This document shows positions 1 to 29,870 of a stretch of 64,000 nt of DNA, piece after piece. The position numbers and the translations under genes are program-made. Location: the NCBI GenBank assembly GCA_964606775.1, contig CAZSGW010000001.1, forward strand, positions 24,002 to 88,001, given 5' to 3'. Below the pieces are notes generated by a model that worked only from the letters and a program-made list of their open reading frames with translations, searched no databases and was not told the DNA's origin. Positions within the stretch are counted from its first letter, which is position 1, and the number at the start of each line of letters is the position of its first letter. Origin of the DNA: Candidatus Woesearchaeota archaeon. GTDB lineage: Archaea; Nanobdellota; Nanobdellia; Pacearchaeales; GW2011-AR1.

Positions 1-3000
1 GGGTAGGCACCATCAATAACGCCCTCATTTGAATAAGAAGATAAATCTTTAACAAGCGTGCTATTCTCTCCCAAAGAAGAAACATTATCAAAATTCATAA
101 ATAATTTTACAGTTTCATCATAAAAAGTATAATTTATTCCATCAAAATCCAATATAGTACTAGTTAGATTAGAAGCAGAAATAGAAGCATTAATTTCAAA
201 AAAATCATAGATTATATTTTCATTATCTGAAGGAGTAGGAGAAACAAAACTTATATTTTGATCAACAAATGAAAGGTTATATGAAAATATCATCTCTCCA
301 GGAAGAGAAAATTCTCCAGTTTCACGAGGAACATTTGCTTCTTGGGCATCATTACTACTTCCTAAACTAATTACAGATCCCTCATTTAAAGCAGTGTTAA
401 GATTCAAAATCAAAGTACTCCCACCAACAGACGAACTAGTAATATTCGAATCAGTTAAAACAATTCCTCCATCAACAATTCTCCAACCTTCAGAACCTGA
501 ACTCACATTCAAATTTTTATCAAATTCCAAAGTAATCTTATTTGAACTTAAATCAAATTGCGCACTCTGAATTCGGGGACCTCTCTCAAAACTTCCACCA
601 TAATAATGAGTGGATAAAGCAGCCCACCATCTATCTGCAAATTCCTGTAATTGCTCGTCTGTCTTAAAATGCAAATTATCTGGAAGTAAACCAATATCAT
701 AAGTAACGGGACCATATTTAACATTGGAATTTTCATCCCATAATTCCTGTTGAGCCTTTCTTATATTATCATTGGTTGTCCTATTTCCGTTTGGTTGATG
801 ATCTATCTGACCCACAATAACCGCATCAGCATTCAAATCAGAAATTAAATCATCCGTAAACTGACTCAAATTATTTTTAAAACAATCATAATTACCATAA
901 CAGCCTGCATCAGTTCTTGCATCTCTCTCACCTTGAAACCAAATAACTGCTTTTATTCTTCTAGTACCTCCTGTTGCCTCATCAATTTGATCCACTAAAT
1001 GATCATAATATGAATCTCCTCTTTGCCATTCCAAAATTGAAGAACCTCCTGCAGCTGCGCTAATATATCCAATAGGGATTCCAGTATTTTCAACCAAATG
1101 ATTTGCCAAAAGAGGCCATGAACTTCCATCACTTGAAGTAGAATGAATTGGATCATTCGCAATCTTCCAAGCATCATCTTCTCGATAAACAGTCGCGTTT
1201 ATTCCAAGAGAAGTATTATAATTCTGTAGATTATAACCTGTCATTCTCGCATTTGATTGACCTGAAATCGCATACAAATCTCCGATACCAATCTGTTCAA
1301 CAGAATCCACAATTGAATTATTATTTGAAAATCTAACTTCTAAAATTCCCTGGCCCACACTCTGATTAGTCAGATTACCTTCAAAACTCCCTCCATCCGG
1401 AGAAGAAACAATTTCACTCCAATCTCCTCCATTAAACCTTGCCTCAATAGTGCTGGGATTCCCAGTATAGCTTCCAGAAATTGAAATATTAGATTTATTC
1501 TCTGAATCCCGCTGAACAATGGTATATTTAACCGGAGTTGAAATAGTGATAGTTCCTGAAACAGACTCTGTAACATTTCCAACATTAAGCGTCCTAATTT
1601 CGGTAGAAATCAAATTATTTAAAGAATCTCTCGCATAAATAGAATAATTATACGAAGTATCATTACACAAATCCTGAACATTTGAATAAAAAACCCAATT
1701 AGTAGAATCATATTTATACAAATTAGAATAATAATGTTGTTGAAGTTCCTCTTCGCTTATTGCCTTTTTATGTATTGCTAAATTATCAATATTTCCACCA
1801 AGATAATATTCGTTAGCAAAGGTCTCATCTCGAATATAACCAATCTTAAAATTATCACTTGAAGAAATATCTGTAGCAGAAGCAGAAGAAATGTCTTCTG
1901 TATAACTCAAAACACCATTCTTATAAAAACTAATATTCCCATCTCTATCTGCAATAACTGCTATATGAGTCCACCCATCTGAAGGAAGAAAACTCAAACC
2001 AGAAACACTGCTCGTGTCAATTGCATCACTCTCCGCTCTTAACCTTATTTTATTTCCTGAAGATGTTGCAGTAAAAAACAAGCCAAATCCCTCTGCATCA
2101 AAAGTTCCCTTAGATAAAATACCATTAGGTCCTGAATCATCAATACTTCTATTAACCCAAAACAGAATTGAAAAATCATTAGTCCCAAAATTCAAATCAC
2201 CTTCATCTTCAACATCAACATGATCATCTGTAGCATCAAGATAAACGGAATTCCCATATTTACCTGACTCGATAAATGCTCCATTTTTTAAAATCCCCTC
2301 ATTCGTCAAATTAGTCAAATCTTTAACAAGCGTGCTATTCTCTCCCAAAGAAGAAACATTATCAAAATTCATAAATAATTTTGTATTACTATCATAAATA
2401 GTATAATTTAAATCATTCCAATTAAAAATTAATTCATTTAACTGTCCAACATCTGTTGTTGCATTTATCTCAACTGAACTTTCATTGATAGTATCTCCAT
2501 CGCTAGGAGTGGGTGAAACAAACGAAATAGAATGATTAATACCCGAATAAGTTATACTAACATTATAAAGCAAAGGAAAATAAGAAGTATTCTCCGTTTC
2601 AAAAAGTCCCTTATATTGGATGTATCGATTATCAGTCAAGCTTAAATTTTGAGAAGAAACGTCATTAATGTCTGTCCAAGATTCGCCAGAACAAGAAAAA
2701 TCATCACAGCTCCTTACAGAAAAATCGATCGAATTTATACCTCTTCTATACAAACCACTAACTTCGGACTGAGAAAGAGATTTATTCCACAAAGAAATTT
2801 CATCAATAAATGCATTTAAATCTTGGTTATTTAAGGCCGTATTCTTACCTACTTTTATAACAGCATTTCTATCGTCATCTCCAGTAAAACCAGTATCAGT
2901 ACCTTGATTATCCACTTTAACAGAGTCCAAATAAATAGAAATACTTTCATTTCCAACACTTCCATTCCAAGTTGCAACAATCGAGTGCCATTCACCATCA

Positions 3001-4754
3001 AACAAATCAGTCGAAGAAGTTTCCCTCTGAATACTTCCCCCGTTACCAAATTTTGTATAGTAAATTTTCCCAGTACTTTTATCCGCAGAAAAATACCATT
3101 CTGTCTCTCCAAGATTGTCATACTTACTAATCAAATCCATCAAAACACTTGAAGAACCATTATCTTTGAACCATAGATGAACACTGAACCCTCCGGGATT
3201 ATAGAATTCAGAATCATCCTCAATTTGAAAATAATCTGTCTCATTAAAATAAACTGATTTATTGAACCTTCCTTCATACGAATAATCAACACCGTGATTA
3301 GTTGCATTATTGCCATAACCAGAATAATCAATAAAATTCCCACTCTCTTCATTTAAATGCAAGAGCAAAATATTATCTTCTAAACCAGAATCTAATTCTC
3401 CCATAGGGCTGGATATCCAAGAAAAAATATCCCACGAGACAAGAGAAGTTGCATCAAAAACCTGACTCAAGAATAATCCGCTAGAAGAATTTAATTCAAG
3501 AGCATCAACCGAATTATTAAAACTAACATTCATTAAAGTTCCAGAAAGAAAACTATATCTTGTACTTCCTTCGTTAATCAAATATGTACCTGAATCACCT
3601 TCTGTAACAAGTTCACTATAATCAACACTCACATTATAAAGTTTAGGGATATAATTTACATTAGGGGTTGTAAAATTGAACAAATATTGAAAATACCTAT
3701 TATCACTCACGCTTAAACTCTGAGGAGAACTATCACTCACATCAATCCAAGATTCGCCAGAACAAGAAGAATCATTACAACTTCTCACCGATAAATTAAG
3801 TCTTTGTATACCTCTTGCATAATGCTCTCCAATTTCGTCCTCGGATAAAGTACGATTATAAACAACAAACTCGTCCATATCTCCATCAAAAAAATAATCC
3901 TTATCTCCGGCACCATTAATAATATACCCTAAACTAAAATTATCGCTTGATGAAATATCTGTAGTAGAAGCAGAAGAAATATCTTCTATATAAGTCAAGG
4001 AAGCATTTTTATAAAAACTAATATTCCCGTCCCTATCTGCAACAACTGTAACATGCGTCCAACCATCAGAAGGAGTAAATGAATAAGTTCCATCAGCAGG
4101 ATCAGTGGGAGCATCAATAACATCACTCTCCGCTCTTAACCTTATTTTGTCTTGGCCAGTAAAAAACAATCCAAATCCTTCCGCATCAAAAGTCCCTTTT
4201 GAAGTCAAACCTTGCGTCCCAGTACTATCTCTTTTAATCCAGAAACTAATAGAAAAATCATCGGTTCCAAAATTTAAATCCCCACTATCATTTATACTAA
4301 TTAAATCATCCGAACCATCAAAACCAATTGCAGAATTTATTTGACCCTCTTGATTGTACAAAGCACCGTTATAACTTCCATTATTTGAATTACTTGAATA
4401 ATCTATTATTGTTCCAGATTGTTCATTTAAATGCATAAGTAAAATATTTCCACTTAATCCAACATCAAACTCTCCGTCATCACTTCCCCACAAAATAGAG
4501 CTCCAAGTTGAATTCTCTCCTGCATCAAAAATTTCACTAGCATAAGAACCTTTTAAAAAACTAGAATTCAAAACAACCGCGTTAAAAGTAGAATTATAAG
4601 AAGTGTTCACATAAATCCCATTTTCAAAATCAGATTCAGTATTATCCAAAAAATTTCCCGCATAAACAGATGTAAGAAGTAAAACAAAAAGCAACAAAAA
4701 AACTAAATTATATTTATGATTAACAAAGAACTTCCCAGATTTATCAAACAACAT
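1..4754 (-). CDS. Giant secreted modular surface protein, 5' part only (ATG at 4754..4752; runs off the window at position 1, >1580 aa): signal peptide, at least 3 LamG/ConA-like lectin units and an embedded SASA/SGNH-type carbohydrate O-acetylesterase domain
   Basis: Manual translation of the minus frame (codons starting at coordinates = 0 mod 3) is open from 4754 down to 1. It is missing from the ORF track because there is no stop in the window, and all listed minus ORFs here are in a different frame. The N-terminus MLFDKSGKFFVNHKYNLVFLLLFVLLLTSVYAGN is a signal peptide. Recurring motifs GDLNFGT(D/N)DFSI(S/L)FW(I/V) and FSVRSC(N/D)D(S/F)SCSGESW..DNRY.QY fit LamG_3/ConA-like units of about 370 aa. 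Region about 1380..540 encodes ..AISGQSNARM..GSSWPLLANHL..AAAGGSSILEWQ..AVIWFQGERDA..LPDNLHFKTDEQLQEFADRWW, i.e. the GQSN and W(F/Y)QGE motifs of the sialate O-acetylesterase (SASA, PF03629) family. Codon-by-codon checks were done at 1..62 and 840..1380. Confidence 0.6.
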   Translation of the reverse strand, partial: MLFDKSGKFFVNHKYNLVFLLLFVLLLTSVYAGNFLDNTESDFENGIYVNTSYNSTFNAVVLNSSFLKGSYASEIFDAGENSTWSSILWGSDDGEFDVGLSGNILLMHLNEQSGTIIDYSSNSNNGSYNGALYNQEGQINSAIGFDGSDDLISINDSGDLNFGTDDFSISFWIKRDSTGTQGLTSKGTFDAEGFGLFFTGQDKIRLRAESDVIDAPTDPADGTYSFTPSDGWTHVTVVADRDGNISFYKNASLTYIEDISSASTTDISSSDNFSLGYIINGAGDKDYFFDGDMDEFVVYNRTLSEDEIGEHYARGIQRLNLSVRSCNDSSCSGESWIDVSDSSPQSLSVSDNRYFQYLFNFTTPNVNYIPKLYNVSVDYSELVTEGDSGTYLINEGSTRYSFLSGTLMNVSFNNSVDALELNSSSGLFLSQVFDATSLVSWDIFSWISSPMGELDSGLEDNILLLHLNEESGNFIDYSGYGNNATNHGVDYSYEGRFNKSVYFNETDYFQIEDDSEFYNPGGFSVHLWFKDNGSSSVLMDLISKYDNLGETEWYFSADKSTGKIYYTKFGNGGSIQRETSSTDLFDGEWHSIVATWNGSVGNESISIYLDSVKVDNQGTDTGFTGDDDRNAVIKVGKNTALNNQDLNAFIDEISLWNKSLSQSEVSGLYRRGINSIDFSVRSCDDFSCSGESWTDINDVSSQNLSLTDNRYIQYKGLFETENTSYFPLLYNVSITYSGINHSISFVSPTPSDGDTINESSVEINATTDVGQLNELIFNWNDLNYTIYDSNTKLFMNFDNVSSLGENSTLVKDLTNLTNEGILKNGAFIESGKYGNSVYLDATDDHVDVEDEGDLNFGTNDFSILFWVNRSIDDSGPNGILSKGTFDAEGFGLFFTATSSGNKIRLRAESDAIDTSSVSGLSFLPSDGWTHIAVIADRDGNISFYKNGVLSYTEDISSASATDISSSDNFKIGYIRDETFANEYYLGGNIDNLAIHKKAISEEELQQHYYSNLYKYDSTNWVFYSNVQDLCNDTSYNYSIYARDSLNNLISTEIRTLNVGNVTESVSGTITISTPVKYTIVQRDSENKSNISISGSYTGNPSTIEARFNGGDWSEIVSSPDGGSFEGNLTNQSVGQGILEVRFSNNNSIVDSVEQIGIGDLYAISGQSNARMTGYNLQNYNTSLGINATVYREDDAWKIANDPIHSTSSDGSSWPLLANHLVENTGIPIGYISAAAGGSSILEWQRGDSYYDHLVDQIDEATGGTRRIKAVIWFQGERDARTDAGCYGNYDCFKNNLSQFTDDLISDLNADAVIVGQIDHQPNGNRTTNDNIRKAQQELWDENSNVKYGPVTYDIGLLPDNLHFKTDEQLQEFADRWWAALSTHYYGGSFERGPRIQSAQFDLSSNKITLEFDKNLNVSSGSEGWRIVDGGIVLTDSNITSSSVGGSTLILNLNTALNEGSVISLGSSNDAQEANVPRETGEFSLPGEMIFSYNLSFVDQNISFVSPTPSDNENIIYDFFEINASISASNLTSTILDFDGINYTFYDETVKLFMNFDNVSSLGENSTLVKDLSSYSNEGVIDGAY
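43..108. repeat. 66-bp exact direct repeat, copy A (copy B at 2317..2382; period 2274 bp) inside the giant gene
   Basis: aaatctttaacaagcgtgctattctctcccaaagaagaaacattatcaaaattcataaataatttt is identical at both positions, and the flanking sequence is similar but diverged. Confidence 0.9.
2317..2382. repeat. 66-bp exact direct repeat, copy B (copy A at 43..108)
   Basis: Same 66-mer as at 43..108. A further diverged repeat relationship lies between 2014..2223 and 4105..4344 (offset about 2091 bp), visible as two similar antisense ORFs in the ORF track. Confidence 0.9.
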
Positions 4755-4925
4755 TTTCACCTCTAAAAAAGAAAAGAAAAATAGTATTTAAATGTTAAGA
4801 TTAACAACGACAAAGTAACAAAATTTTAAAAAAAATCTCCACAAAAGTTTTATTTTTAAATTCAAAATATACAAAAAATTTCCTGTATGAAAAAAATACT
4901 AAAAGAAAAATCAAACAAATAAAAA

Positions 4926-5084
4926 TTATTTCTTAGAATCAGCCAAAGATTTTTCAAGTCTTTCTTTAAGTTTATCTAAATTGTAGTCTCCATCTATAAG
5001 ACTAAAAGATTTAGATTTCTTAGTTTTAAGGTCTGTTATTTGAACTCTAAACCTTATATCCTCTTTTTTCAACACTTTCAACAT
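4926..5084 (-). CDS. Small basic hypothetical protein (52 aa: MLKVLKKEDIRFRVQITDLKTKKSKSFSLIDGDYNLDKLKERLEKSLADSKK)
   Basis: Complete ORF below the 60-aa ORF-track cutoff. A TATA-like tttaaaaat (minus strand, plus coordinates 5106..5114) is centred about 26 nt upstream of the ATG, matching leaderless archaeal promoter geometry seen elsewhere in the window. No recognisable family. Confidence 0.35.
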   Translation of the reverse strand: MLKVLKKEDIRFRVQITDLKTKKSKSFSLIDGDYNLDKLKERLEKSLADSKK

Positions 5085-5192
5085 TCAGTATAAAGGGGAA
5101 ATGTATTTTTAAACTTTTTTATCCACGCAAAATTCACTTCCATCAAAAATAAAATAATTATTAAAAAATATCCAAAAAATTTTTTCAAAATA

Positions 5193-5200
5193 TTTATATA
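5193..5200 (+). promoter_or_regulatory. TATA box (tttatata) centred about 25 nt upstream of the ATG at 5222, consistent with a leaderless transcript
   Basis: AT-rich archaeal TATA consensus. The same spacing recurs upstream of metG, valS, the aRF1 gene and tfb. Confidence 0.4.
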
Positions 5201-5221
5201 TGAACAAATCAACTAAATAAC

Positions 5222-6016
5222 ATGAAAAAGAACGTAATCTTTGTATTTTGTATTATTCTATTAATCTCTCCAATAATGGCTCAAGAATATAATCTTGACA
5301 TTTCAACTAGCAAAGACATTTTCAAAGCAGGAGAGGATATAGTGTTAAAAGTAACGCTTCGAGACTCTTCAAATGATCTAATACAAGATAACATTTCTGT
5401 AAAGTTAGAAGATGCAGAAAGAAAAATAAATTTAAAAAAAACTATTCCTGCAAACGAATTCGTTAATTTGGAAATAGGTGACCATGCAAGTCACGGACAA
5501 GGAACTATTACTGCACAATACAAAGATTCGAGCACAACGGGAATTTTTACAATCGAAATAAAAGAATTGGCAAGATTTGATTTAGACAAAGATATTTTAA
5601 CAATAACAAATATTGGAAATACAAAATACTCAAAATCAGTTCAAATTAATATAGGGGAAACAACTGGAATAAAACAACCTAAATTATTTGCGGGGGAAAG
5701 TGTTTCATATAGATTAATTGCTCCCGAAGGAACATACAACATAAAAATAACTGATGGAAAAACAACGTTAGAAAAAGAAAACATGCAGCTTTCAAGTGGC
5801 GGACTAACCGGAAAAAGTATCGGAATAATTAATGAAAGAGATTCTGACCAAACTACAATCACAGGAGGGATAAGTCCTGATGAAGAAAAAGAAGATGCAA
5901 TTTTAAACTATATGAAAAATAGCAAATCGATTTATATTTTCGTTATGGCAATTTTTGGAATAATGATTTTATTAGCAATTGAAAGAAAATACTCCAAAAA
6001 GAAATCTAAAAAGTAA
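5222..6016 (+). CDS. Secreted protein with N-terminal signal peptide and C-terminal TM anchor plus basic tail (archaeal surface-protein topology)
   Basis: MKKNVIFVFCIILLISPIMAQEYN is a signal peptide; the C-terminal IYIFVMAIFGIMILLAIERKYSKKKSKK is a TM helix with a Lys tail. Divergent from the giant surface gene. Confidence 0.55.
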   Translation: MKKNVIFVFCIILLISPIMAQEYNLDISTSKDIFKAGEDIVLKVTLRDSSNDLIQDNISVKLEDAERKINLKKTIPANEFVNLEIGDHASHGQGTITAQYKDSSTTGIFTIEIKELARFDLDKDILTITNIGNTKYSKSVQINIGETTGIKQPKLFAGESVSYRLIAPEGTYNIKITDGKTTLEKENMQLSSGGLTGKSIGIINERDSDQTTITGGISPDEEKEDAILNYMKNSKSIYIFVMAIFGIMILLAIERKYSKKKSKK

Positions 6017-6021
6017 TTTAT

Positions 6022-6435
6022 TTATTCTCCAACAACTTTAACCAAAACTTGTTTATCTCTCTGCCCATCAAATTCTCCATAAAAAATTTCCTCCCATCTT
6101 CCAACATCCAAATCATTATTTGAAATAGAAATAGTCGTTTCTCTCCCCATCACCGTCCTCCACAAATGAGCAAAACCATTGTCCTCGCCTGTTTGATGAT
6201 GGTGATAGTCCTTTTCCTTCGGCGCAAGTTTTTCTAACCACTCCTCAAAATCTTTCAGCAAACCAGATTCATTATCATTTACAAAAACAGAAGAAGTAAT
6301 ATGCATAGGATTTATCAAAGCAATCCCTTCTTTCACTCCAGATTCTTTCACAACATTTCTAACTTTTTCAGTGATATTTACAAAATCTATTCTCTTTTGA
6401 GTCTTAATTGTTATCTTTTTAAGATAAGTTTTCAT
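6022..6435 (-). CDS. YjbQ/UPF0047 family protein (secondary thiamine-phosphate synthase-like)
   Basis: The fold-family motifs ..GIALINPMHITSSVFVNDNESGLLKDFEEWLEKLAP..YHHHQTGEDNGFAHL..GRWEEIFYGEFDG match the YjbQ family. Confidence 0.7.
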   Translation of the reverse strand: MKTYLKKITIKTQKRIDFVNITEKVRNVVKESGVKEGIALINPMHITSSVFVNDNESGLLKDFEEWLEKLAPKEKDYHHHQTGEDNGFAHLWRTVMGRETTISISNNDLDVGRWEEIFYGEFDGQRDKQVLVKVVGE

Positions 6436-6485
6436 AAAAATACCAAGAAAAAAAGATTTATAAATCCTATCAGATTAGATTTCTT

Positions 6486-6719
6486 ATGGCAGATTGGAAA
6501 ACATACCTCATAATTTATTTCGGAACAAAAGAAACAAAACCAACCGAAGTAGCAAAAAAACTTGAAGAAATTGGATTTGAAACTTCATTTGGGCCAGTAG
6601 ATTTTATCTACGAATGGGAAGAAAAACCTTCAAAAGAACAAGTTTTAGAACTAGCAGATAAAATATCTGAATCCCTAAAAGAATCGGGAGTGATTTTTAA
6701 TTTAGATACTCACGATTAA
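6486..6719 (+). CDS. Small hypothetical protein (77 aa)
   Basis: ORF with K/E-rich composition typical of this genome; no recognisable motif. Confidence 0.35.
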   Translation: MADWKTYLIIYFGTKETKPTEVAKKLEEIGFETSFGPVDFIYEWEEKPSKEQVLELADKISESLKESGVIFNLDTHD

Positions 6720-6776
6720 TTTCTAAAAAATATTTTTATTTTTACAATTAGTTGTAACTCCCAAAAAAGATTATAA

Positions 6777-6849
6777 AGCGGAGGGTGGGACTCGAACCCA
6801 CGAAAAATCGGGTTGCAGCCGATTGCAGTAGCCGCTGTGCCACCTCCGC
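6777..6849 (-). tRNA. tRNA-Cys (anticodon GCA)
   Basis: Minus-strand cloverleaf: acceptor GCGGAGG/CCTCCGC, anticodon loop CUGCAAC, T-arm GTGGG-TTCGAGT-CCCAC, discriminator U73 as expected for tRNA-Cys. The D-stem is only 3 bp. Confidence 0.8.
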
Positions 6850-6923
6850 ATAGAAATTAAAGAAAGTTCGAACTTTTAAAGTTAATTATCTGAATATAAG
6901 AAAATAGTAACAACGGAGTATAT

Positions 6924-7994
6924 CTATTTTTTCAAATGCAAAGCATCAACTGGACAAATTTCCATACAACAAAAACATCTAATACATTTCTTCTTATCGA
7001 TAACAGGATAAGGCTTTAAAGTGATTGCGTCAACAGGACATTTCTTCGCACAAGTTCCACACTGAATACATTTTTTCTCATTACAAATAATCGGCTTCTG
7101 TGCAAACGCTCTTCTCAACCTACTCTGATGAAGTTTACAAGGAGGCTTCTTAAAGTGAATTTTCGGTAATTTTTTCAAACCAACCAACTCAAATTTATAA
7201 TCTGGATATAAACCTCTCTTTATTGCAAAATTTATCGCAAAAATCTTTTTAGGGCTACACCCTATAATACCACTTCCAGCAATATCCAAAGCAACAGCAT
7301 CTTTTGAAGCTAAGATTATTTTGGAATTAACAGGACTTCCCGAAGTGGGACCATGTCCTTGCATTCCAACTACCCCCTCCATAATATTTAATTCAGGTTT
7401 TATATTTTGATAAATATCAACTAATAAATTAGAAAATTTTTTCTCTCCTTTTGCATCATTATGTAATTTCTGTTTCAAACCCCCTGGAATAACCCCATAC
7501 AAATTTTTTATCGCTCCAGTATACTTAGTTAAAATATGAGTTTTTAATTTCGGAACATTTATTATTAAATCCATTTCCTTAAAAGTTTTAGAAACTGGGA
7601 ACTCTTTCAAAACCTTGTTCTTAGGATTTTTAATTTTAGACAATTTATCTTGCTCAAAAATAACTACCTTAGCACCATACTTTTTCGCAACCTTTTCAAT
7701 GCCCGACTTCTTGAAGAACTCATCAGTATCCATAAACGAAGATTCCCCGATAAAAATCTTACATTTATTTTTCTTCAATATCTTACAAATTGCATCAATG
7801 ATTTGTGGCTGAGTATATGTAGCTTTTTTATTCTTGACATTTGCTGTAACTATATTGGGCTTTATCATAACCCTTGAATTTTTCTTAAACTCAAAACCAA
7901 TTAAATCTATAGATTCCTTAACAGCCTTATCGACTTCTTTCTGAGAATAAGAATTACATTTTACAACGGAAACTTTTTCAACCTCTTTCTTCAT
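6924..7994 (-). CDS. DUF362 domain protein with C-terminal 2x[4Fe-4S] ferredoxin domain
   Basis: The C-terminus carries two CxxCxxCxxxCP motifs (CIQCGTCAKKCP and CIRCFCCMEICP). The N-terminal 280 aa resemble DUF362 iron-sulfur-associated proteins. Confidence 0.65.
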   Translation of the reverse strand: MKKEVEKVSVVKCNSYSQKEVDKAVKESIDLIGFEFKKNSRVMIKPNIVTANVKNKKATYTQPQIIDAICKILKKNKCKIFIGESSFMDTDEFFKKSGIEKVAKKYGAKVVIFEQDKLSKIKNPKNKVLKEFPVSKTFKEMDLIINVPKLKTHILTKYTGAIKNLYGVIPGGLKQKLHNDAKGEKKFSNLLVDIYQNIKPELNIMEGVVGMQGHGPTSGSPVNSKIILASKDAVALDIAGSGIIGCSPKKIFAINFAIKRGLYPDYKFELVGLKKLPKIHFKKPPCKLHQSRLRRAFAQKPIICNEKKCIQCGTCAKKCPVDAITLKPYPVIDKKKCIRCFCCMEICPVDALHLKK

Positions 7995-8048
7995 AATATA
8001 TATAGAAATAGAAAACTTTTAAACCTTATTAATCAACAAATTACTAGA

Positions 8049-8122
8049 GCCCCGGTAGCTCAGCTGGATAGAGCGACTGCCTTCTAAGCAGTAGGTCGCA
8101 GGTTCGAATCCTGTCCGGGGCA
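8049..8122 (+). tRNA. tRNA-Arg (anticodon TCT)
   Basis: GCCCCGG..CCGGGGC acceptor, anticodon loop CTTCTAA, T-loop GGTTCGAATCC, discriminator A. Confidence 0.9.
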
Positions 8123-8170
8123 TAATTTCAAAAAAGCAAAATTCTAAAAGAAATATGTTTTAACAAAAAA

Positions 8171-8794
8171 TTAATTTTCTTGAAATTCCAAAATTAATTT
8201 TCCTTTCTCAATATTTTGACTTACAATTTCCATATTAAAGGGAATAAATTTGTAATACGCTTTTTTATCACTAATAGCTTTTATCTCAATACTGCTTTCC
8301 AAAGCAACAATCTGAACATCTTCAATACTTTTTAGTCCAGGCATATAAATTTCGTAAAGAATTTTATTACCTAGTCTTTTCAAATTTGTCTTAGCTTCTT
8401 CCCTTGGCAAACTAGAGAATTTGCTAAGTTTTTCCTCATCAAAAAATCTAAGAGTCTTCTTCTTAGGTTCCTTTTTAGGTTTCGGAGACTGTTGATTATT
8501 CAATTTAACTTCCTTCCCATTAATCATCAATTTAAAATTAGAATTTGGTTGAGGTTGTATTCTCCCTCCTTCCTTCTTCATTTCTTTCTCAAGCATTTTA
8601 AGAGTACTATTAAGCATCCTTCCTAACATTCCTCCTCCCATCCCTTCAAAAACTTCTTTAGAATCATCAAAATCATTTTTGCCTAACATTCCCCACTCTT
8701 CTTTTCGGTAAAGGGGAGTTCCACAATTAGGGCAAAAATTAAACTTTCCAGACAATTTTTCTTTACATTTTTTACAAGACTTCTTATTCAACAT
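8171..8794 (-). CDS. Zinc-ribbon protein with C-terminal Hsp20/alpha-crystallin-like domain
   Basis: N-terminal CKKCKEKLSGKFNFCPNCG zinc ribbon; the C-terminal ..ILYEIYMPGLKSIEDVQIVALESSIEIKAISDKKAYYKFIPFNMEIVSQNIEKGKLILEF resembles an sHSP ACD beta-sandwich. Confidence 0.4.
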   Translation of the reverse strand: MLNKKSCKKCKEKLSGKFNFCPNCGTPLYRKEEWGMLGKNDFDDSKEVFEGMGGGMLGRMLNSTLKMLEKEMKKEGGRIQPQPNSNFKLMINGKEVKLNNQQSPKPKKEPKKKTLRFFDEEKLSKFSSLPREEAKTNLKRLGNKILYEIYMPGLKSIEDVQIVALESSIEIKAISDKKAYYKFIPFNMEIVSQNIEKGKLILEFQEN

Positions 8795-8829
8795 ACTTAA
8801 AATTTAGATGAAAGCATTTAAATTTCTTA

Positions 8830-10209
8830 CTATTTAGAAAAATACTTCTTTATAGACATTATTTGATGTACTTCCTCGAAAAGTGTCGGTTTAAATCCTC
8901 GAAAAATATTTTTTAATGCCTTCTTTCCATCAAAATTTTTGGTTTTTCTAACTTCTTTAAACTTTAAAAGAAAAAGATGGACTACCAACATTCTAACCAA
9001 AGATCCAAATATGAATATAGCAACAATTGGCTCAACCAAACTAATAGTCCAGAATCTTATCAAAATTGCTCCAAGACCTGCACCCAAAAAAATCCCTACA
9101 CCAATCAAAATATTAAGATAAGAAACAGTAAGTGCTCTTCGAGAATCAGAAACATTATCATATACAAAGTTACCAGAGCACAAAACAAAACCTCCTCCTA
9201 AAACACCCGTAATAAACAAAGCAACAAGCATCAAATAAATTGGGTTAGTTGAAATAATCCACAAAATAGGTATAACCGGCAATAACAAACTTATAATTGA
9301 AATAGTCTTATAATTCCCATATTTATCTGCCAATTTACCCCATAATTCCAAAGTAAACAATGAGACAACATGACCGCCCATGATAATTACCATGTAAGTA
9401 ACATAACTAAATTCTAAATTTCTCAAAAGATAAATAGCAATCAAAGGAGATGTTATTGCTACAGAAAACGCAACCAAACTACGATAAATTGCAAATTTAC
9501 CAAAATTATTCTTAGAGATATTTCTTAAAAATTCCCAAAATGAAAAATAATGGTCTTTCTCCAGTTTTAATTCAGGACAATACATTTTCTTAAAAGTATT
9601 CCAAGAAAACAACCTAAAAATGAAAGCAAATCCAAAAAGTAAAACAAATCCAAACATCGTCATACTTTTATGTTTAAAATAATCCAACAAAAAGGAAGAA
9701 ATTATTGCAAAAACAAAAGAAGTAAAACCAATCATCAAATTTCTCTTAGAAAAATATCTTCCCCTGTAATTATCACTAACCAAGTCGCCCATCCAGGAAA
9801 ACCATGCTGGATGACTTAAATTAGACAAAATCATAAACATTGAAAAAGTCAAAAAGGTTGCCAAAGGCAAAAAAGAAGTAAGAATATCAAAATAAAATAA
9901 CAAAGCAATTCCAATCAAGGGAAGCCAAATCAAAGCCTCCAAAAACACTGCCTTTCTCACAACATTCCTTCTAGAATCTTTCTCAATTAATTTTGAACCA
10001 TATATCTGACTTATAGGTCCCAACAAACCCCCAACCGAACTTAACAAAGCAACAACCGAATTACTTGCGTTAACAGCTATTGCAAAGGGAGAAAAATACC
10101 TATCTCCAAAAGAAGTTCTTCCAGACCAAAAAAGCCCCTCTTTTATGCTGGCTCTCCTAGTTTTATATTTTTTAGCCTTAACTAAAGGGCTTTCTTTTGT
10201 TGTCACCAT
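8830..10209 (-). CDS. Polytopic membrane transporter, MFS-like
   Basis: 459 aa with about 12 predicted TM helices and an internal duplication pattern; composition typical of major facilitator permeases. Confidence 0.5.
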   Translation of the reverse strand: MVTTKESPLVKAKKYKTRRASIKEGLFWSGRTSFGDRYFSPFAIAVNASNSVVALLSSVGGLLGPISQIYGSKLIEKDSRRNVVRKAVFLEALIWLPLIGIALLFYFDILTSFLPLATFLTFSMFMILSNLSHPAWFSWMGDLVSDNYRGRYFSKRNLMIGFTSFVFAIISSFLLDYFKHKSMTMFGFVLLFGFAFIFRLFSWNTFKKMYCPELKLEKDHYFSFWEFLRNISKNNFGKFAIYRSLVAFSVAITSPLIAIYLLRNLEFSYVTYMVIIMGGHVVSLFTLELWGKLADKYGNYKTISIISLLLPVIPILWIISTNPIYLMLVALFITGVLGGGFVLCSGNFVYDNVSDSRRALTVSYLNILIGVGIFLGAGLGAILIRFWTISLVEPIVAIFIFGSLVRMLVVHLFLLKFKEVRKTKNFDGKKALKNIFRGFKPTLFEEVHQIMSIKKYFSK

Positions 10210-18677: not shown

Positions 18678-19907
18678 ATGGATTTTATAACAGGAGTTTT
18701 TTTAGTATATTCATTCATAGCATTCTATTTTCTATTTCTATTTTTATTAACCTATTTTCAAAACAAAAAGGAGGTCTTCGAAGTCCCTCCGCTAACAAAA
18801 GAATATTCTCTAAGCATAATAATTCCCTGCTATAACGCAGAAAAAGTAATAGAAAATACAATAAAGAATGTATTAAAAAACGGATATAACGGATTAAAAA
18901 AGGTTGTCGTTGTAGACGATTGCTCCACAGATAATTCTTGGAAAATCATAAAAAAATGTGCACAAAAATACGAAAAAGTTGAGGCAGTTCAAACTCCAAA
19001 AAATACTGGAAATGCTGCAGGAGCAAAAAACTATGGTGCAAAATTCGTAGACACTGAACTTATAGGATTCACTGATGATGATTCATATCCAAAAAAAGGC
19101 GCAATAGAAAAAATGGTGGGTTTCTTCGACAATAAAAAAGTAGGGGCCGTTACTTCAACAGTTTTGGTTAAAAATAGAAATAATTTCATATTAAAACTAC
19201 AATCTTTAGAATACAAAGTAATAAAATTTTCCAGAAAACTTTTAGAATTTTTAGATTCAATTTATGTGACTCCAGGACCATTAGGAATATATAGAAAATC
19301 CGCATTCGATAAAATCGGAGGGTTCGACGAGAAAAACCTAACTGAAGATATTGAAATTACATGGCACTTACAACACGCAGGCTACAAAGTAAAAATGGCG
19401 ATTCCTGCAAGAACATATAGTATTGCCCCTTCTTCTATTAAAGCTTGGATTCACCAAAGAAATAGATGGAACATTGGAGGCTTACAAACAATCATGAAAT
19501 ACCGAAAAAACTTCCTGAAAAAAGGAATGCTTGGATTTTTTATTCTACCCTTCTTTGTCTTATCTTGGGTCGTTGGATTATTTGGGTTGGGAATTCTAGG
19601 TTACAGATTATTCAGGACTATTTTCATAAGGTCGTTATCCGCTTCATATTCAATTAAAACTCAAACTGCAATACTTTCTTTTGGAGACATTAGTATAGTT
19701 CCGAGCGCATTAGTTTTCTTTGGAATTGCAGTATTCATCTTAAGCCTAACATTCACTCTTATAGCAATATTAAATGTTAGAGAGAAAGAATACAAAAGAG
19801 AAAACTTTTTTTCAATAGCTTTTTATATGTTCTTTTACTTGCTGGCATATCCGATAATTTTATTAATCTCGTCTTACAGATTTTTAAAAGGAGATCTCAA
19901 ATGGTAA
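18678..19907 (+). CDS. Family 2 glycosyltransferase, membrane-embedded processive type (cellulose/chitin-synthase-like)
   Basis: IIIPCYNAE, VVVVDDCSTDNS, TDDD, and HQRNRWNIGG (QxxRW), flanked by N- and C-terminal TM helices. Confidence 0.75.
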   Translation: MDFITGVFLVYSFIAFYFLFLFLLTYFQNKKEVFEVPPLTKEYSLSIIIPCYNAEKVIENTIKNVLKNGYNGLKKVVVVDDCSTDNSWKIIKKCAQKYEKVEAVQTPKNTGNAAGAKNYGAKFVDTELIGFTDDDSYPKKGAIEKMVGFFDNKKVGAVTSTVLVKNRNNFILKLQSLEYKVIKFSRKLLEFLDSIYVTPGPLGIYRKSAFDKIGGFDEKNLTEDIEITWHLQHAGYKVKMAIPARTYSIAPSSIKAWIHQRNRWNIGGLQTIMKYRKNFLKKGMLGFFILPFFVLSWVVGLFGLGILGYRLFRTIFIRSLSASYSIKTQTAILSFGDISIVPSALVFFGIAVFILSLTFTLIAILNVREKEYKRENFFSIAFYMFFYLLAYPIILLISSYRFLKGDLKW

Positions 19908-25687: not shown

Positions 25688-26998
25688 TTAAGGATTCAAC
25701 CGAGTAATGCTCCTTGGAAAAGGTATTGCATCTTTTATATTGTCTAAACCGCAAATCCAAGAAATAATCCTCTCAACACCCATCCCATAACCTCCATGGG
25801 GCACACTCCCATACCTCCGAGTATCTAAATAAAAATCATAATTTTTCAAATCTTCTCCCTGTTTTTTAAGATTATCCTTAATTTTTTCTATGTCTTCTTC
25901 TCTTTGTGACCCTCCAATCAATTCCCCATATCCTTCAGGACCAATCATATCAAAACCTAAAACAACCTTTCCTTCTTTTGGTTGCTCAGAATCAGGAGCC
26001 TCTTTCATATAAAATGCTTTAACTTCCTTAGGATAATTTGTAACAAGAATCGGAGTTTCATACATTTCAGAAAGTTTGTCTTCTTCAAGAGTTCTCAAAT
26101 CCTTGCCCCATTTAATATTCATTTTTTTATCTTTCAAAATCTTCAAAGCTTCAGTATAACTCATTCTAGGAAACTTTTTCTTCAAAACAGGTTCTAACTT
26201 TTTAACATCCCTTTCCAAAATTTCTAATTCAGATTTATTTAATTCTAAAACCTTTTTAACAATATGTTTAGTTAACTCCTCTGCATCATCCTGCAACATT
26301 TCAAAATTACTCCAAGCAACTTCCATTTCTGCCATCCATAACTCAGACAAATGCCTAGAAGTTTTAGATTTCTCTGCTCTAAACGCAGGTTGAATTGTAA
26401 AAATTTTTTCTAATGCAAAAATTGCTGGTTCTGCATGAAGTTGCCACGTCTGAGATAAGTAAGCGGGTTTTCCATAATAATCTACTTCAAACAATGTTGA
26501 ACCTCCCTCACAAGAAGCACCCAAAATTTCAGGGCTATGAAATTCGACAAAACCCTTTTTCAACCAGTGTTCTCTCATTGCTTGCAAAATAGTTGAACGA
26601 ATTTTCAAAATCGCAGTCATTTTTCTTGAACGTAACCACAAATGCCTTCTATCTCCCAAAAGTTCTTCATTCAAATCCTTATTAATCGGAAAATCTTCAG
26701 CAATATGAACAACATTTACTTTAGAAACCTGAATCTCATAACCTGTTGGTGCCCTTTTATCTTCATTAATCTCTCCTTCTAATTCAACCGAACTTTCGAC
26801 AAGTAACTTATCAACTTTCGCCCAAGTTTCATCATCAAAATTTTCTCTCTTCAAAACACACTGAATAATATTTGTAGAATCTCTTAAAACAATAAACTTA
26901 AACTTATTCGAACCTCTCTCCCGATAAACCCATCCTCTCACGGCTACCTTGCCTTTTCCTTTCTTCATAGCTTCTTTTATTGAAATATACTTAGTCAT
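25688..26998 (-). CDS. asnS: Asparaginyl-tRNA synthetase (class IIb; alternative: archaeal-type AspRS)
   Basis: EGGSTLFEVDYYGKPAYLSQTWQL, FRAEKSKTSRHLSELWMAEME (motif 2), GGSQREED, and PHGGYGMGVERI (motif 3). Confidence 0.65.
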   Translation of the reverse strand: MTKYISIKEAMKKGKGKVAVRGWVYRERGSNKFKFIVLRDSTNIIQCVLKRENFDDETWAKVDKLLVESSVELEGEINEDKRAPTGYEIQVSKVNVVHIAEDFPINKDLNEELLGDRRHLWLRSRKMTAILKIRSTILQAMREHWLKKGFVEFHSPEILGASCEGGSTLFEVDYYGKPAYLSQTWQLHAEPAIFALEKIFTIQPAFRAEKSKTSRHLSELWMAEMEVAWSNFEMLQDDAEELTKHIVKKVLELNKSELEILERDVKKLEPVLKKKFPRMSYTEALKILKDKKMNIKWGKDLRTLEEDKLSEMYETPILVTNYPKEVKAFYMKEAPDSEQPKEGKVVLGFDMIGPEGYGELIGGSQREEDIEKIKDNLKKQGEDLKNYDFYLDTRRYGSVPHGGYGMGVERIISWICGLDNIKDAIPFPRSITRLNP

Positions 26999-27025: not shown

Positions 27026-28390
27026 TTAATTTTTGTTTTTATCCAACTTCAAACCAGCTTCTTTTAATTGTTCTTTAGAAACTTCAGAAGGAGCATCAAG
27101 CATAACATCTCTTCCAACTTTGTTCTTTGGAAAAGGAATAACTTCACGAATATTATCTTCACCCACCATCAATTGAACCAATCTATCCAAACCTAAAGCT
27201 AACCCTCCGTGAGGCGGAGCACCATATTTCAATGCTTCAAGTAAAAAACCAAATTTCTTCTTAGCTTCCTCTTTAGAAACTTTCAAAATATCAAAAATCT
27301 TCTCCTGAATTTCAGTATCATGAATTCTAATCGAACCACCACCAATCTCAGAACCATTCAAAACAATATCATAAGCAAAAGATTTTGATTTCTCTGTAAC
27401 ATCTTTTCCATCAACAGGCATTGTAAATGGATGATGTGTAGATTTATACCTTTTTTCATCCTCTGAATATTCAAAATTAGGAAAATCAACAACCCAGCAA
27501 AAAGCAAATTCCTCTTTATCTTCTAGATTTTTCCTCAAATCAGGATTATCTCTCCCATATTTCTCCATTGATTCTTCATAACTAATTCTCTTAAACGGAA
27601 TTTTCAAATCAACATTTTTAACTTTCTTAAAAACATGTTTCATTAATCTTTCAATAACATCAATAACATCATCCTGTTCTACAAAACTCATTTCAACATC
27701 TACTTGAGTGAATTCTGGTTGCCTATCTTTTCTCAAATCCTCATCCCTAAAACATTTCGCAATCTGAATATACTTATCAAAACCTGCAACTTGAGACAAC
27801 TGTTTAAAAATCTGGGGCGACTGAGGCAAAGCATAAAATTCTCCAGGATAATTTCTTGATGGAACAACATAATCTCTTGCACCCTCTGGAGTGGACTTAC
27901 CTAAAATCGGCGTTTCAAAATAAACAAACCCTTCTTTCTGAAAAAATTCCAAAACAGCACTAATAACTTCTCCACGAGTAACAATATTCTCTTGCATTCT
28001 CGAAGTTCTCAAATCCAAATAACGATTCTTCAATCTTGTTTCTTCTTCATTAGTATCATTCTTTAAATCAAAAGGTAAAACAGGACATAAATTAAAAATC
28101 TCTAAATTTTCAATCTCAATCTCCGCATCTTGACAAACACCCTCTGCTTGAACTTTTGCTTCTTTAACATTTCCTTCAATAGAAATACAAGATTCATTTG
28201 TAAGTTTCTTAGCCTCTTCAAAACCTTCCGACTTAGAATTAACAACACACTGAACTTTTCCATATCTATCTCTAATAATGACAAAAACCAAAGACTTCAA
28301 AACACGAACAGAATCAACCCATCCGCAAAGCTTAACCTTTTTTCCAACTAACTTAGAATTCACTTCAGAAATTTTATGTGTTCTTAGCAT
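27026..28390 (-). CDS. aspS: Aspartyl-tRNA synthetase, bacterial-type sequence without the GAD insertion (possibly non-discriminating)
   Basis: ARDYVVPSRNYPGEFYALPQSPQIFKQL, CFRDEDLRKDRQPEFTQVDVEMSF, and GAPPHGGLALGLDRLV. Confidence 0.85.
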   Translation of the reverse strand: MLRTHKISEVNSKLVGKKVKLCGWVDSVRVLKSLVFVIIRDRYGKVQCVVNSKSEGFEEAKKLTNESCISIEGNVKEAKVQAEGVCQDAEIEIENLEIFNLCPVLPFDLKNDTNEEETRLKNRYLDLRTSRMQENIVTRGEVISAVLEFFQKEGFVYFETPILGKSTPEGARDYVVPSRNYPGEFYALPQSPQIFKQLSQVAGFDKYIQIAKCFRDEDLRKDRQPEFTQVDVEMSFVEQDDVIDVIERLMKHVFKKVKNVDLKIPFKRISYEESMEKYGRDNPDLRKNLEDKEEFAFCWVVDFPNFEYSEDEKRYKSTHHPFTMPVDGKDVTEKSKSFAYDIVLNGSEIGGGSIRIHDTEIQEKIFDILKVSKEEAKKKFGFLLEALKYGAPPHGGLALGLDRLVQLMVGEDNIREVIPFPKNKVGRDVMLDAPSEVSKEQLKEAGLKLDKNKN

Positions 28391-28415: not shown

Positions 28416-29870
28416 TTAAGATTTTGGGTTTATCTTTAAAAACTTCCCAATTATTTTCATCGCATCTCCACCAGAGATAGCACCTTTAAACTCTTTCATA
28501 ACCAATCCCATATACGCATTTGGATTCAACCCAGGTTTATCTTTAATTATCTTCATAATCTTCTCCTCAACATCTCCCAAATCCGCTTTCTCAATCTTAA
28601 TTGCATCCTCAAACTTCTTCCCTTCAACCAAAGCGGTCAAAACATCCTTCACATCAGATTCAAAAATTTTCTTTTTATTCAAAGCCAACAAAATATCTCC
28701 ATAATAATCCTCAAGCTTCTTCTCAACCTTGCTCAAATCCTTATCCAACTTAGAAGCAATCTCTTTTGGAAAAAGTAAAAACATCTTCGCAACAAAACTA
28801 ATCGAACCTTCATAAATTCCAATCAAATCCTTAAACTCATCAACCTTCCCCTGTTTCAATAACAACTTAATCATTTCCTGACTCAAACCTTTCTTCTTCA
28901 AATCCTCTTCAATCTCGCCTTTCAACAGAGGTAAATTCTTCTTAACATCATCAATCATCTGTCTAGAAATTTTCAACAAAGGCAAATCTGTTTCTGGATA
29001 CATACGAGCACTTCCAGGCAAAGGCCTCATAAAATCAGTCGTAGCATCAGGATTAACTTTTCTAACTTCCATCTCAACCGGCTTTTTAGAATCACTCAAC
29101 TTAACCTGCCTCTCAATCTCATTCTCAATAGCCTTAACAAAAACTTTCATATCCTGCATCCCTTTAATCTCAACTCTATTCTCTCCTCGAATAGAAACAT
29201 TAACATCCTGTCTAATTGTCCCAATACCTCTACGAACTTTACAACTTCTCAAAATTTCTCCAATCATCAAAGCAACTTCCTTAGCATGTTCAGGGTCCTT
29301 AATATCCGGAGCAGTAACAACCTCCACTAAAGGAATCCCCAATCTATCTAAATTGTAATAAATTTTATCTCCAGAAGCGTTAACCTTCCGAGCAGCATCC
29401 TCTTCAAGATAAATATAACTAATTCCAACTTTCCCTTTAGAAGTCTCCAAATAACCATCTCGAGCAATCAAAACAGTCCTCTGAAAACCCGAAACATTTG
29501 TCCCATCTAAAACAGTCTTCCTCATAATTTGAGTAACAGGCTGAATTTTACAATTCATTAAAAGAGCAATCTGCATTCCAACCCTCAAAGCATCCCGATT
29601 AATTTCATGGGGCGGTTCTTCATCTAATTCAACTAAACAAGAATTTTCATCATGTCCCTGATAAACAAAAATCTTTCCCAAACCAGCCTGAAATTTTGCA
29701 GCAACATCAACTTCCCCAGACTCTCCAGCAACAGCATGTAATTTACGTTCAACAGAAAAATCTGGCTCATCCGACCTCAAAACAGAAGGACAATTACAAA
29801 ACAACTTTCCAGTATCCAACTGCTGATGAATCTCCAACCCAGATTTAAATTTTAATTTTGAATAATCCAT
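28416..29870 (-). CDS. gatE: GatB/GatE-family tRNA-dependent amidotransferase catalytic subunit (GatE-like N-terminus, GatB-like length, with C-terminal GatB/YqeY domain)
   Basis: MDYSKLKFKSGLEIHQQLDTGKLFCNCPS matches the GatE N-terminal signature; the C-terminal ..NAYMGLVMKEFKGAISGGDAMKII.. is a YqeY-like domain. At 484 aa it is shorter than canonical GatE (about 620 aa). GatD is encoded 1.4 kb upstream. Confidence 0.7.
   Translation of the reverse strand: MDYSKLKFKSGLEIHQQLDTGKLFCNCPSVLRSDEPDFSVERKLHAVAGESGEVDVAAKFQAGLGKIFVYQGHDENSCLVELDEEPPHEINRDALRVGMQIALLMNCKIQPVTQIMRKTVLDGTNVSGFQRTVLIARDGYLETSKGKVGISYIYLEEDAARKVNASGDKIYYNLDRLGIPLVEVVTAPDIKDPEHAKEVALMIGEILRSCKVRRGIGTIRQDVNVSIRGENRVEIKGMQDMKVFVKAIENEIERQVKLSDSKKPVEMEVRKVNPDATTDFMRPLPGSARMYPETDLPLLKISRQMIDDVKKNLPLLKGEIEEDLKKKGLSQEMIKLLLKQGKVDEFKDLIGIYEGSISFVAKMFLLFPKEIASKLDKDLSKVEKKLEDYYGDILLALNKKKIFESDVKDVLTALVEGKKFEDAIKIEKADLGDVEEKIMKIIKDKPGLNPNAYMGLVMKEFKGAISGGDAMKIIGKFLKINPKS

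Follow-up and report, generated by a model that had tools for sequence, protein, structure and literature searches.

What is an O-acetylesterase doing in the middle of a chain of lectin domains on the surface of an archaeon? The question is raised by a gene at the left end of a 64,000-nucleotide stretch of contig CAZSGW010000001.1 (positions 24,002 to 88,001), assigned to a Candidatus Woesearchaeota archaeon; we refer to this whole stretch as the window. The gene runs on the minus strand from nucleotide 4754 past the window edge and encodes a giant protein of 2403 residues. An earlier reading of the window (the original prediction) had described a very large extracellular protein that combines laminin G (LamG)/ConA-like lectin domains with a SASA-type SGNH esterase, and both Pfam and fold matches bear this description out. 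As a reading of its biology, we put at roughly 0.55 the probability that the giant is a membrane-anchored, glycosylated DPANN surface adhesin, which would bind glycans and remove O-acetyl groups from them.

The gene itself is confirmed. Translating the reverse complement of positions 1..4754 gave 1584 codons from the ATG at 4752..4754 (minus strand) with no stop, the frame being open to nucleotide 1, just as had been predicted. With a genome GC content of ~32%, an open frame of this length cannot, judged by composition, be the product of chance. A protein database search returned P0001, a protein of 2403 residues encoded on a 152,714-bp NCBI contig, which begins at the same methionine and is 100% identical to the window translation; the window therefore contains the N-terminal two thirds of the gene. 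Its absence from the mechanical list of open reading frames had been put down to the lack of an in-window stop, and this is correct, since the gene extends past the window edge. Thirteen codons before the ATG is an in-frame stop, and just 5' of the ATG stands a Shine-Dalgarno-like GAGGTGA (4757..4763, minus strand). The AT-rich stretch TTTAAATA at 4785-4792 is a possible TATA box, but such motifs are common in this spacer of 21% GC. Rfam and tRNA scans of the window returned five tRNAs and nothing within 1-4754.

From the N-terminus, P0001 is composed of a signal peptide, two lectin units of a type that we call A, one of type B, the esterase, a second type B unit, immunoglobulin-like (Ig) repeats, a Gly9 linker, two beta-rich regions, a transmembrane helix and a lysine-rich tail. 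The Ig repeats (two, resembling Big_13), the linker and the two further beta-rich regions lie beyond the window. Lectin and esterase domains do not alternate, as had been supposed; the actual order is LamG-LamG-LamG-esterase-LamG. Only two segments of the 2403-residue chain are hydrophobic, residues 9-37 and 2345-2372. The first belongs to a Sec-type signal peptide of residues 1-32 (4659..4754, minus strand), with cleavage after MLFDKSGKFFVNHKYNLVFLLLFVLLLTSVYA and before a glycine. The same cleavage context, AYA followed by S or G, is found in the homologues P0003 and P0004, in line with the signal peptide of the original prediction. The second corresponds to a transmembrane helix at about residues 2348-2368, beyond the window, which is followed by a C-terminal Lys-rich (KKK) tail, taken to be cytoplasmic. 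Because of this helix and tail, the giant is predicted to be a type-I membrane-anchored surface protein and not a released polyprotein. The phrase "secreted polyprotein" has to be given up, as nothing points to proteolytic processing. The off-window tail contains no known C-terminal sorting signal (PGF-CTERM and similar). P0001 has 86 N-X-S/T sequons, compared with 45.5 ± 5.9 in shuffled sequences, and is probably heavily N-glycosylated, as expected for an archaeal surface protein.

We then delimited the esterase. The SASA profile PF03629 matches residues 1159-1369 (nucleotides 648-1280) over model positions 3-214 of 226, scoring 98-103 bits against a cut-off of 24.8 (E-values from 7.3e-28 to 1.6e-29). 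A search with residues 1040-1510 found 96 proteins, many of which are free-standing enzymes of ~460 residues, annotated as sialate O-acetylesterases in Planctomycetes, Armatimonadota, Victivallales and Actinobacteria. These are 30-46% identical to the query cassette over ~90% of the length. Since the homology to free-standing enzymes runs from end to end, the module is larger than the SASA core and comprises residues 1061-1498 (438 residues; 261..1574, minus strand), which form a beta-sandwich, a contiguous SGNH/SASA core and another beta-sandwich. The SASA domain had been placed at about 1380..540; the location was right, the extent too small.

An AlphaFold2 model of this cassette, built from a 47-sequence alignment, is of high confidence, with a predicted local distance difference test (pLDDT) score of 92.9 and a predicted template modelling (pTM) score of 0.88. 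In the model, the core lies between beta-strands at segment residues 29-126 and 356-458, which form the two sandwiches. When the model was compared with the PDB using Foldseek, the best match was the Xanthomonas citri enzyme XacXaeA (XAC1771, PDB 7kmm; 5e-24, TMq 0.63, ~460 aligned columns). Mammalian SIAE (8f9o, 8f9p, 8f9q and 8f9r; E ~1e-19, TMq ~0.6) and the CE20 enzymes 9ega and 9h4u (~1e-16) also aligned over the full length of the model. Three further enzymes aligned in the core only: 2apj and 1zmb at ~1e-12, and NanS (3pt5) at 1e-7. The SGNH fold of the model is supported by a Foldseek probability of 1.00 to each of these three. At the level of sequence, the best PDB match was 2apj, at 1.3e-14 with the single sequence and 2.5e-22 with the profile, and the cassette profile also matches the PDB sequences of the Foldseek relatives. 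The two checks that the original prediction had set for itself here, profile searches and structure prediction, thus both came out in its favor: Laminin_G_3 and SASA score above threshold, and the esterase segment adopts a confident SGNH fold.

Are the residues needed for catalysis in place? SASA enzymes are defined by a glutamine beside the Block I serine, an (H)QGE motif in Block III and DxxH in Block V; the Block I glutamine supplies an inverted oxyanion hole, and (H)QGE replaces the classical asparagine (PMC9487903). By alignment, Block I of the giant is GQSN (residues 1165-1168; 1251..1262, minus strand), with S1167 as the nucleophile and Q1166 as the SASA-specific oxyanion glutamine. All four of its residues reach at least 90% conservation across the 47 sequences, and the motif aligns with those of 2apj, 1zmb and XAC1771 (7kmm). 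Block III is WFQGERD (residues 1272-1278; 921..941, minus strand), where the Q and G of the (H)QGE motif are invariant in the same sequences and the E at least 90% conserved; a phenylalanine occupies the place of the histidine, for which the family consensus is tyrosine. Block V is DNLH (residues 1359-1362; 669..680, minus strand), containing the catalytic aspartate (at least 90% conserved) and histidine (invariant), and it aligns with SDNLH of 2apj. The catalytic serine and His/Asp pair that the original prediction had singled out for checking, S1167, D1359 and H1362, are all present. With all SASA catalytic signatures kept, the cassette is apparently active.

XacXaeA, the founder of family CE20, shares with the cassette an SGNH core, with a Ser-His-Asp triad, that lies between an N-terminal and a C-terminal beta-sandwich, and both carry the annotation "sialate O-acetylesterase". 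The full-length Foldseek matches to 7kmm and 9ega, together with the profile match, extend over both sandwiches of this CE20 layout. However, the sequence identity to XacXaeA is only 17%, and the ~200-residue X448 insert in the catalytic core of that enzyme (PMC8245568) is absent from the cassette, whose profile aligns to 7kmm residues 38-206 and 416-632 and skips the ~200 residues between them. Because the X448 domain is missing, we file the cassette as CE20-like and not as CE20. XacXaeA is also a soluble enzyme from a polysaccharide-utilisation locus, whereas the cassette is a module in a lectin giant. Although annotated as a sialate 9-O-acetylesterase, XacXaeA is a broad-specificity O-acetylesterase that acts on xyloglucan oligosaccharides (PMC8245568). 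A sialic-acid substrate is therefore not established by the SASA name, and the "sialate" part of the earlier reading does not hold, the closest characterised structural relative that bears this label being a xyloglucan acetylesterase of broad specificity.

Other esterases are more distant in layout or in sequence. The SASA/CE6 enzymes At4g34215 (2apj), CAC0529 (1zmb) and E. coli NanS (3pt5) share PF03629 and Blocks I, III and V with the cassette, but they are single-domain proteins of ~240-330 residues without flanking beta-sandwiches or lectin domains. Mammalian SIAE resembles it over the full-length structure and, by profile, across the Block I-III region; the sequence identity to SIAE is 14-15%, and the comparison gives no evidence of a sialic-acid substrate. 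A review of SGNH enzymes tallied 4054 SASA sequences and listed no archaeal members (PMC9487903); the giant would extend the family to archaea.

Laminin_G_3 matches the window protein three times (1.4e-53), at residues 146-308, 504-666 and 840-1004; in separate scans, the E-values of the three domains ranged from 1e-16 to 1e-22. A fourth copy is completed outside the window, where its remainder is found in P0001 (Pfam 3e-18). This is the fourth LamG unit that had been predicted to begin at about 250 and to continue beyond the window. Unit boundaries, drawn from self-comparison and local hidden Markov models (HMMs), separate two kinds of unit, all on the minus strand. Type A consists of a "prelude", a LamG domain and a Cys-rich tail, and occurs at residues 26-382 (unit 1; 3609..4679; prelude 26-108, LamG 109-318, tail 319-382) and 382-739 (unit 2; 2538..3611; prelude 382-466, LamG 467-675, tail 676-739). 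Unit 2 (Pfam 4.5e-16 for its LamG domain) resembles unit 1 on self-comparison. Type B consists of an Ig-like leader ("ISFVSPTPSD..."), a LamG domain and a short trailer. It occurs at residues 739-1060 (unit 3; 1575..2540; leader 739-802, LamG 803-1014, 46-residue trailer) and from residue 1497 on (unit 4), the window holding only the start of the latter (1..266), that is, the leader at 1497-1560 and the first 24 LamG residues.

The Cys-rich tails close unit 1 with C326/C331 and unit 2 with C683/C688. Unit 3, whose LamG domain is 46-63% identical to that of unit 1, lacks such a tail and has one unrelated cysteine, C1030. The Cys-rich motif had been said to end each unit; it is present at the end of units 1 and 2 only. 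As for the claim of at least three LamG units of about 370 residues, three LamG domains were indeed found, with unit lengths of 357, 357 and ~322 residues instead.

The AlphaFold2 model of unit 1 has a pLDDT of 81.6 and a pTM of 0.72. Its best fold matches in Foldseek are the receptor-binding (HC) domains of clostridial neurotoxins (E ~1e-11, ~260 aligned columns), in which the jelly-roll part alone is recognised and not the prelude or the Cys-rich tail. Pfam Toxin_R_bind_N agrees, matching above threshold over the LamG domains. The likeness lies only at the level of the ConA-like jelly-roll clan, at 13-22% identity, and the giant has neither the beta-trefoil HCC half nor the toxin domains. 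We rejected the Pfam matches "Sialidase N-terminal" and Toxin_R_bind_N as evidence of sialic-acid binding, as they overlap the LamG domains and are clan-level matches. An NCBIfam match to "TafC fimbrial protein" was also rejected, since its 71 bits against a cut-off of 410 reflect a LamG-level resemblance.

The two kinds of unit have different distributions. Type A was seen 56 times in the homologue set, with both cysteines invariant, and its carriers there are DPANN archaea and bacteria of the candidate phyla radiation (CPR) such as Moraniibacteriota. This ~360-residue unit, with its RSCDD..CSGESW and RYFQY motifs, is common to DPANN and Moraniibacteriota proteins (e.g. P0042 and P0052). Its occurrence suggests a building block of surface proteins that the two groups of ultra-small episymbionts share. 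The type B unit, an Ig-like leader followed by LamG, builds giants of 1671, 2747 and 5491 residues in three other DPANN genomes (L002-L004), all without an esterase.

How often does such a protein contain an esterase? An exhaustive search over 1.84 billion cluster representatives found 502 cassette relatives at E<=1e-30. Among the best 150 of these 502, 61 have at least 1000 residues, 23 at least 1500 and 9 at least 2000; a narrow HMM detected LamG in 31 of the same 150. The nearest relatives (P0284, P0285, P0286 and P0291; 44-55% cassette identity) all combine Laminin_G_3 with SASA. The domain order of the giant recurs in the Woesearchaeota proteins P0002 and P0003. Its junctions recur as well, from the Ig-like leader and LamG into the esterase in P0079, P0285 and P0334, and from the esterase into the next leader and LamG in P0002 and P0285. 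The original prediction had not known this domain order as a described family. We likewise found no paper on an esterase-bearing LamG giant in DPANN archaea, but the order recurs in other DPANN assemblies and widely in databases. DPANN LamG giants and the SASA family are both known already, and routine annotation records the two domains together in many database proteins. Esterase-bearing LamG giants are thus a recurrent, uncharacterised subfamily that standard domain searches detect easily, and no surprise in kind.

The cassette also has relatives outside such giants. A free-standing esterase of 461 residues (P0081), ~46% identical to the cassette, is encoded in locus L005 (ENA contig_40618, 216 kb). 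At positions 1-9386 of this locus it is the last gene in a same-strand run with a 3709-residue DUF2341/LamG protein, a 1305-residue Peptidase_M14/LamG protein and a 562-residue Metallophos protein; by gene order and domain content, this locus is an unfused form of the LamG-esterase partnership. Another close relative, P0072, lies in an ordinary bacterial neighbourhood with an extracytoplasmic function (ECF) sigma factor and a Ser/Thr kinase. The relatives, ranked by identity, suggest a bacterial origin of the cassette.

Within the giant gene, a 134-nucleotide repeat of 82% identity (22-155 and 2296-2429) brackets the segment from the third LamG domain through the esterase. It encodes an identical 22-residue peptide, KLFMNFDNVSSLGENSTLVKDL, at residues 792-813 and 1550-1571, the leader/LamG boundaries of units 3 and 4. 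Through recombination at this repeat, the esterase cassette could be gained or lost. Contig L001 (5.7 kb), assembled independently from short reads, starts at window position 2353, within the repeat at 2296-2429, which is an ordinary assembly-graph break.

The host was placed by its own genes. The window encodes aRF1, GatD/GatE, aMBF1, FtsZ, TFB, TFE-alpha, L15e, deoxyhypusine synthase and TYW3, and aRF1, on the 152,714-bp contig that carries P0001, shares 73-78% identity with sequences that bear the names Pacearchaeota or Nanoarchaeota. From these archaeal markers and the relatives of aRF1, the host is a DPANN archaeon of the Pacearchaeota/Nanoarchaeota type, in agreement with the reduced archaeon of the original prediction. 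Among the homologues of the giant, Woesearchaeota proteins come closest. Several tRNA synthetases in the window are of bacterial type.

DPANN archaea are rich in LamG surface proteins, for which a role as host-attachment factors has been proposed (PMC5498576, PMC7443923). Those of "Ca. Mancarchaeum acidiphilum" Mia14 and "Ca. Nanohalobium constans" are, like the giant, large and secreted or anchored, with several LamG jelly rolls and many N-glycosylation sites; they are organism-specific and variable, and host-cell attachment has been proposed for them (PMC5498576, PMC7443923). With a DPANN host, a signal peptide, four Laminin_G_3 domains and 86 sequons, the giant belongs to the class of DPANN LamG proteins (PMC7443923). 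Unlike the described members, which contain lectin, PKD or adhesion domains only (PMC5498576, PMC7443923), it has a complete SGNH O-acetylesterase inside the chain.

This combination suggests how the adhesin proposed above could work. The LamG units would attach to the glycans of a second surface, the most plausible one being the envelope of a partner or host cell, and would thereby keep the esterase in contact with the glycan layer to which they bind. O-acetyl esters in that layer would be hydrolysed by S1167, D1359 and H1362, with the oxyanion hole formed by Q1166 and QGE. De-O-acetylation could open the glycan to tighter binding or to the action of other enzymes; alternatively, it could destroy the ligand and so make the contact reversible. 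Recognition and remodelling of host glycans is plausible, and it matches what the literature has proposed for DPANN LamG proteins. LamG giants are the usual candidates for the way in which DPANN archaea recognise their hosts and stay attached to them, but they come without an assigned chemistry. An intact, assayable O-acetylesterase would be a concrete handle on this process, as its substrate would point to the surface glycan and hence to the partner organism.

Several points weigh against such an adhesin. LamG domains can also mediate protein-protein contacts or serve as spacers. The closest characterised structural relative of the cassette, XacXaeA, acts on plant xyloglucan, which makes a polysaccharide-processing role possible, and many relatives of the cassette are ordinary bacterial enzymes. 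The neighbouring genes are housekeeping genes and give no functional hint.

The strongest alternative is a cell-bound scavenging enzyme, which we consider unlikely, with a real chance of being right. Here the LamG domains would be carbohydrate-binding modules that tether the cell to acetylated polysaccharide in the environment (for example xylan, xyloglucan or mannan). The esterase would strip the acetyl groups, glycosidases of the community would digest the polymer, and the archaeon would take up the products or the acetate. Beyond the xyloglucan acetylesterase as best structural match and the free-standing homologues in ordinary bacterial contexts, this would suit the presence of acetylxylan esterases among SASA/CE6 members (PMC9487903) and a major facilitator superfamily transporter ~4 kb away. 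However, among the open reading frames scanned across the 64-kb window we detected neither a glycoside hydrolase nor a gene for polysaccharide utilisation, and an esterase alone releases nothing but acetate. The nearest relatives of the cassette, moreover, belong to LamG giants of a kind typical for DPANN and CPR episymbionts and do not lie in polysaccharide loci, and we continue to prefer a surface adhesin.

If the giant is such an adhesin, it could in a stricter version be a cellular counterpart of the viral haemagglutinin-esterases, with LamG domains that bind O-acetylated glycans of the host envelope and an esterase that destroys this receptor. We regard this version, drawn by analogy, as speculative and doubtful. 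Influenza C HEF and the HE proteins of corona- and toroviruses likewise join a surface-anchored jelly-roll lectin to an SGNH O-acetylesterase, and their receptor-destroying activity makes attachment reversible (PMC3266934). The parallel is one of analogy only: in the viral proteins, of ~400 residues compared with 2403, the esterase is split by an inserted lectin and has the classical Asn oxyanion hole (PMC9487903). The giant has an uninterrupted SGNH core of the SASA type (Gln/QGE), with the lectins outside it, which sets it apart from the haemagglutinin-esterase family. If the analogy were true, attachment would be reversible and "walkable", or confined to de-acetylated patches, and O-acetylation of archaeal or bacterial surface glycans would be a host-range determinant for nanosized archaea.

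Rather improbable, in our view, is a structural, S-layer-like envelope protein, in which the esterase would adjust how far the archaeon's own surface glycans are O-acetylated, with the LamG domains organising a protein lattice. Great size, a C-terminal transmembrane anchor and strong enrichment in sequons are what archaeal envelope proteins have, a GT2 glycosyltransferase is encoded in the window, and the product of the divergent neighbouring gene at 5222-6016 shares the topology of signal peptide, transmembrane helix and lysine tail. Against it, the architecture varies greatly among related genomes, as the esterase-free giants of 1671, 2747 and 5491 residues illustrate, and such variation is more in keeping with fast-evolving interaction proteins than with the core protein of a lattice. 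Nor did any known S-layer family or sorting signal match. Two last readings are very improbable: that the cassette has lost catalysis and serves only for binding, as a pseudoenzyme lectin, or that the fusion is an assembly chimera, formed at the internal repeat that brackets the LamG3-esterase segment and at which contig L001 breaks. The cassette keeps every catalytic and oxyanion residue, and the family conserves them; both junctions are reproduced in other proteins, the 1584-codon frame is continuous and the GC content of the esterase segment (0.35-0.37) is within the range of the gene.

Several other genes in the window deserve mention. The divergent neighbour at 5222-6016 (plus strand) encodes 264 residues with an N-terminal signal peptide, a C-terminal transmembrane helix and a Lys-rich tail (...ERKYSKKKSKK), matching the giant in topology and tail style. 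Its sole Pfam match, MG2, is below threshold (23.4 bits against a cut-off of 32.8), and its product may be a small companion surface protein of the giant. An open reading frame for 52 residues (4926-5084, minus strand) precedes the giant gene by about 170 nucleotides in the same orientation, called as a gene in a Logan contig, whose charged, Lys-rich product has no family match. The only glycan-synthesis gene noticed in the window, at 18678-19907 (plus strand), encodes the GT2 membrane glycosyltransferase, which resembles processive synthases of the PgaC/IcaA type (172 bits, short of the 422 set as equivalog cut-off).

Aminoacylation genes of mixed ancestry cluster at 27026-28390, 25688-26998, 28416-29870, 31248-32534 and 46527-48977, all on the minus strand. 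They include a bacterial-type AspRS, AsnRS, archaeal GatD and GatE, and a LeuRS with a bacterial-type editing domain. The AspRS has only 454 residues and matches its 590-position model in two stretches, so it probably has no insertion domain. Their mixed affinities suggest that several of the synthetases were acquired horizontally. At the far end of the window, an open reading frame for 1310 residues (60061-63993, minus strand) starts at the window edge and is probably truncated there. Its product has no Pfam match and no hydrophobic segment, a Cys-rich N-terminal part and one N-glycosylation sequon, and is unrelated to the LamG giant.

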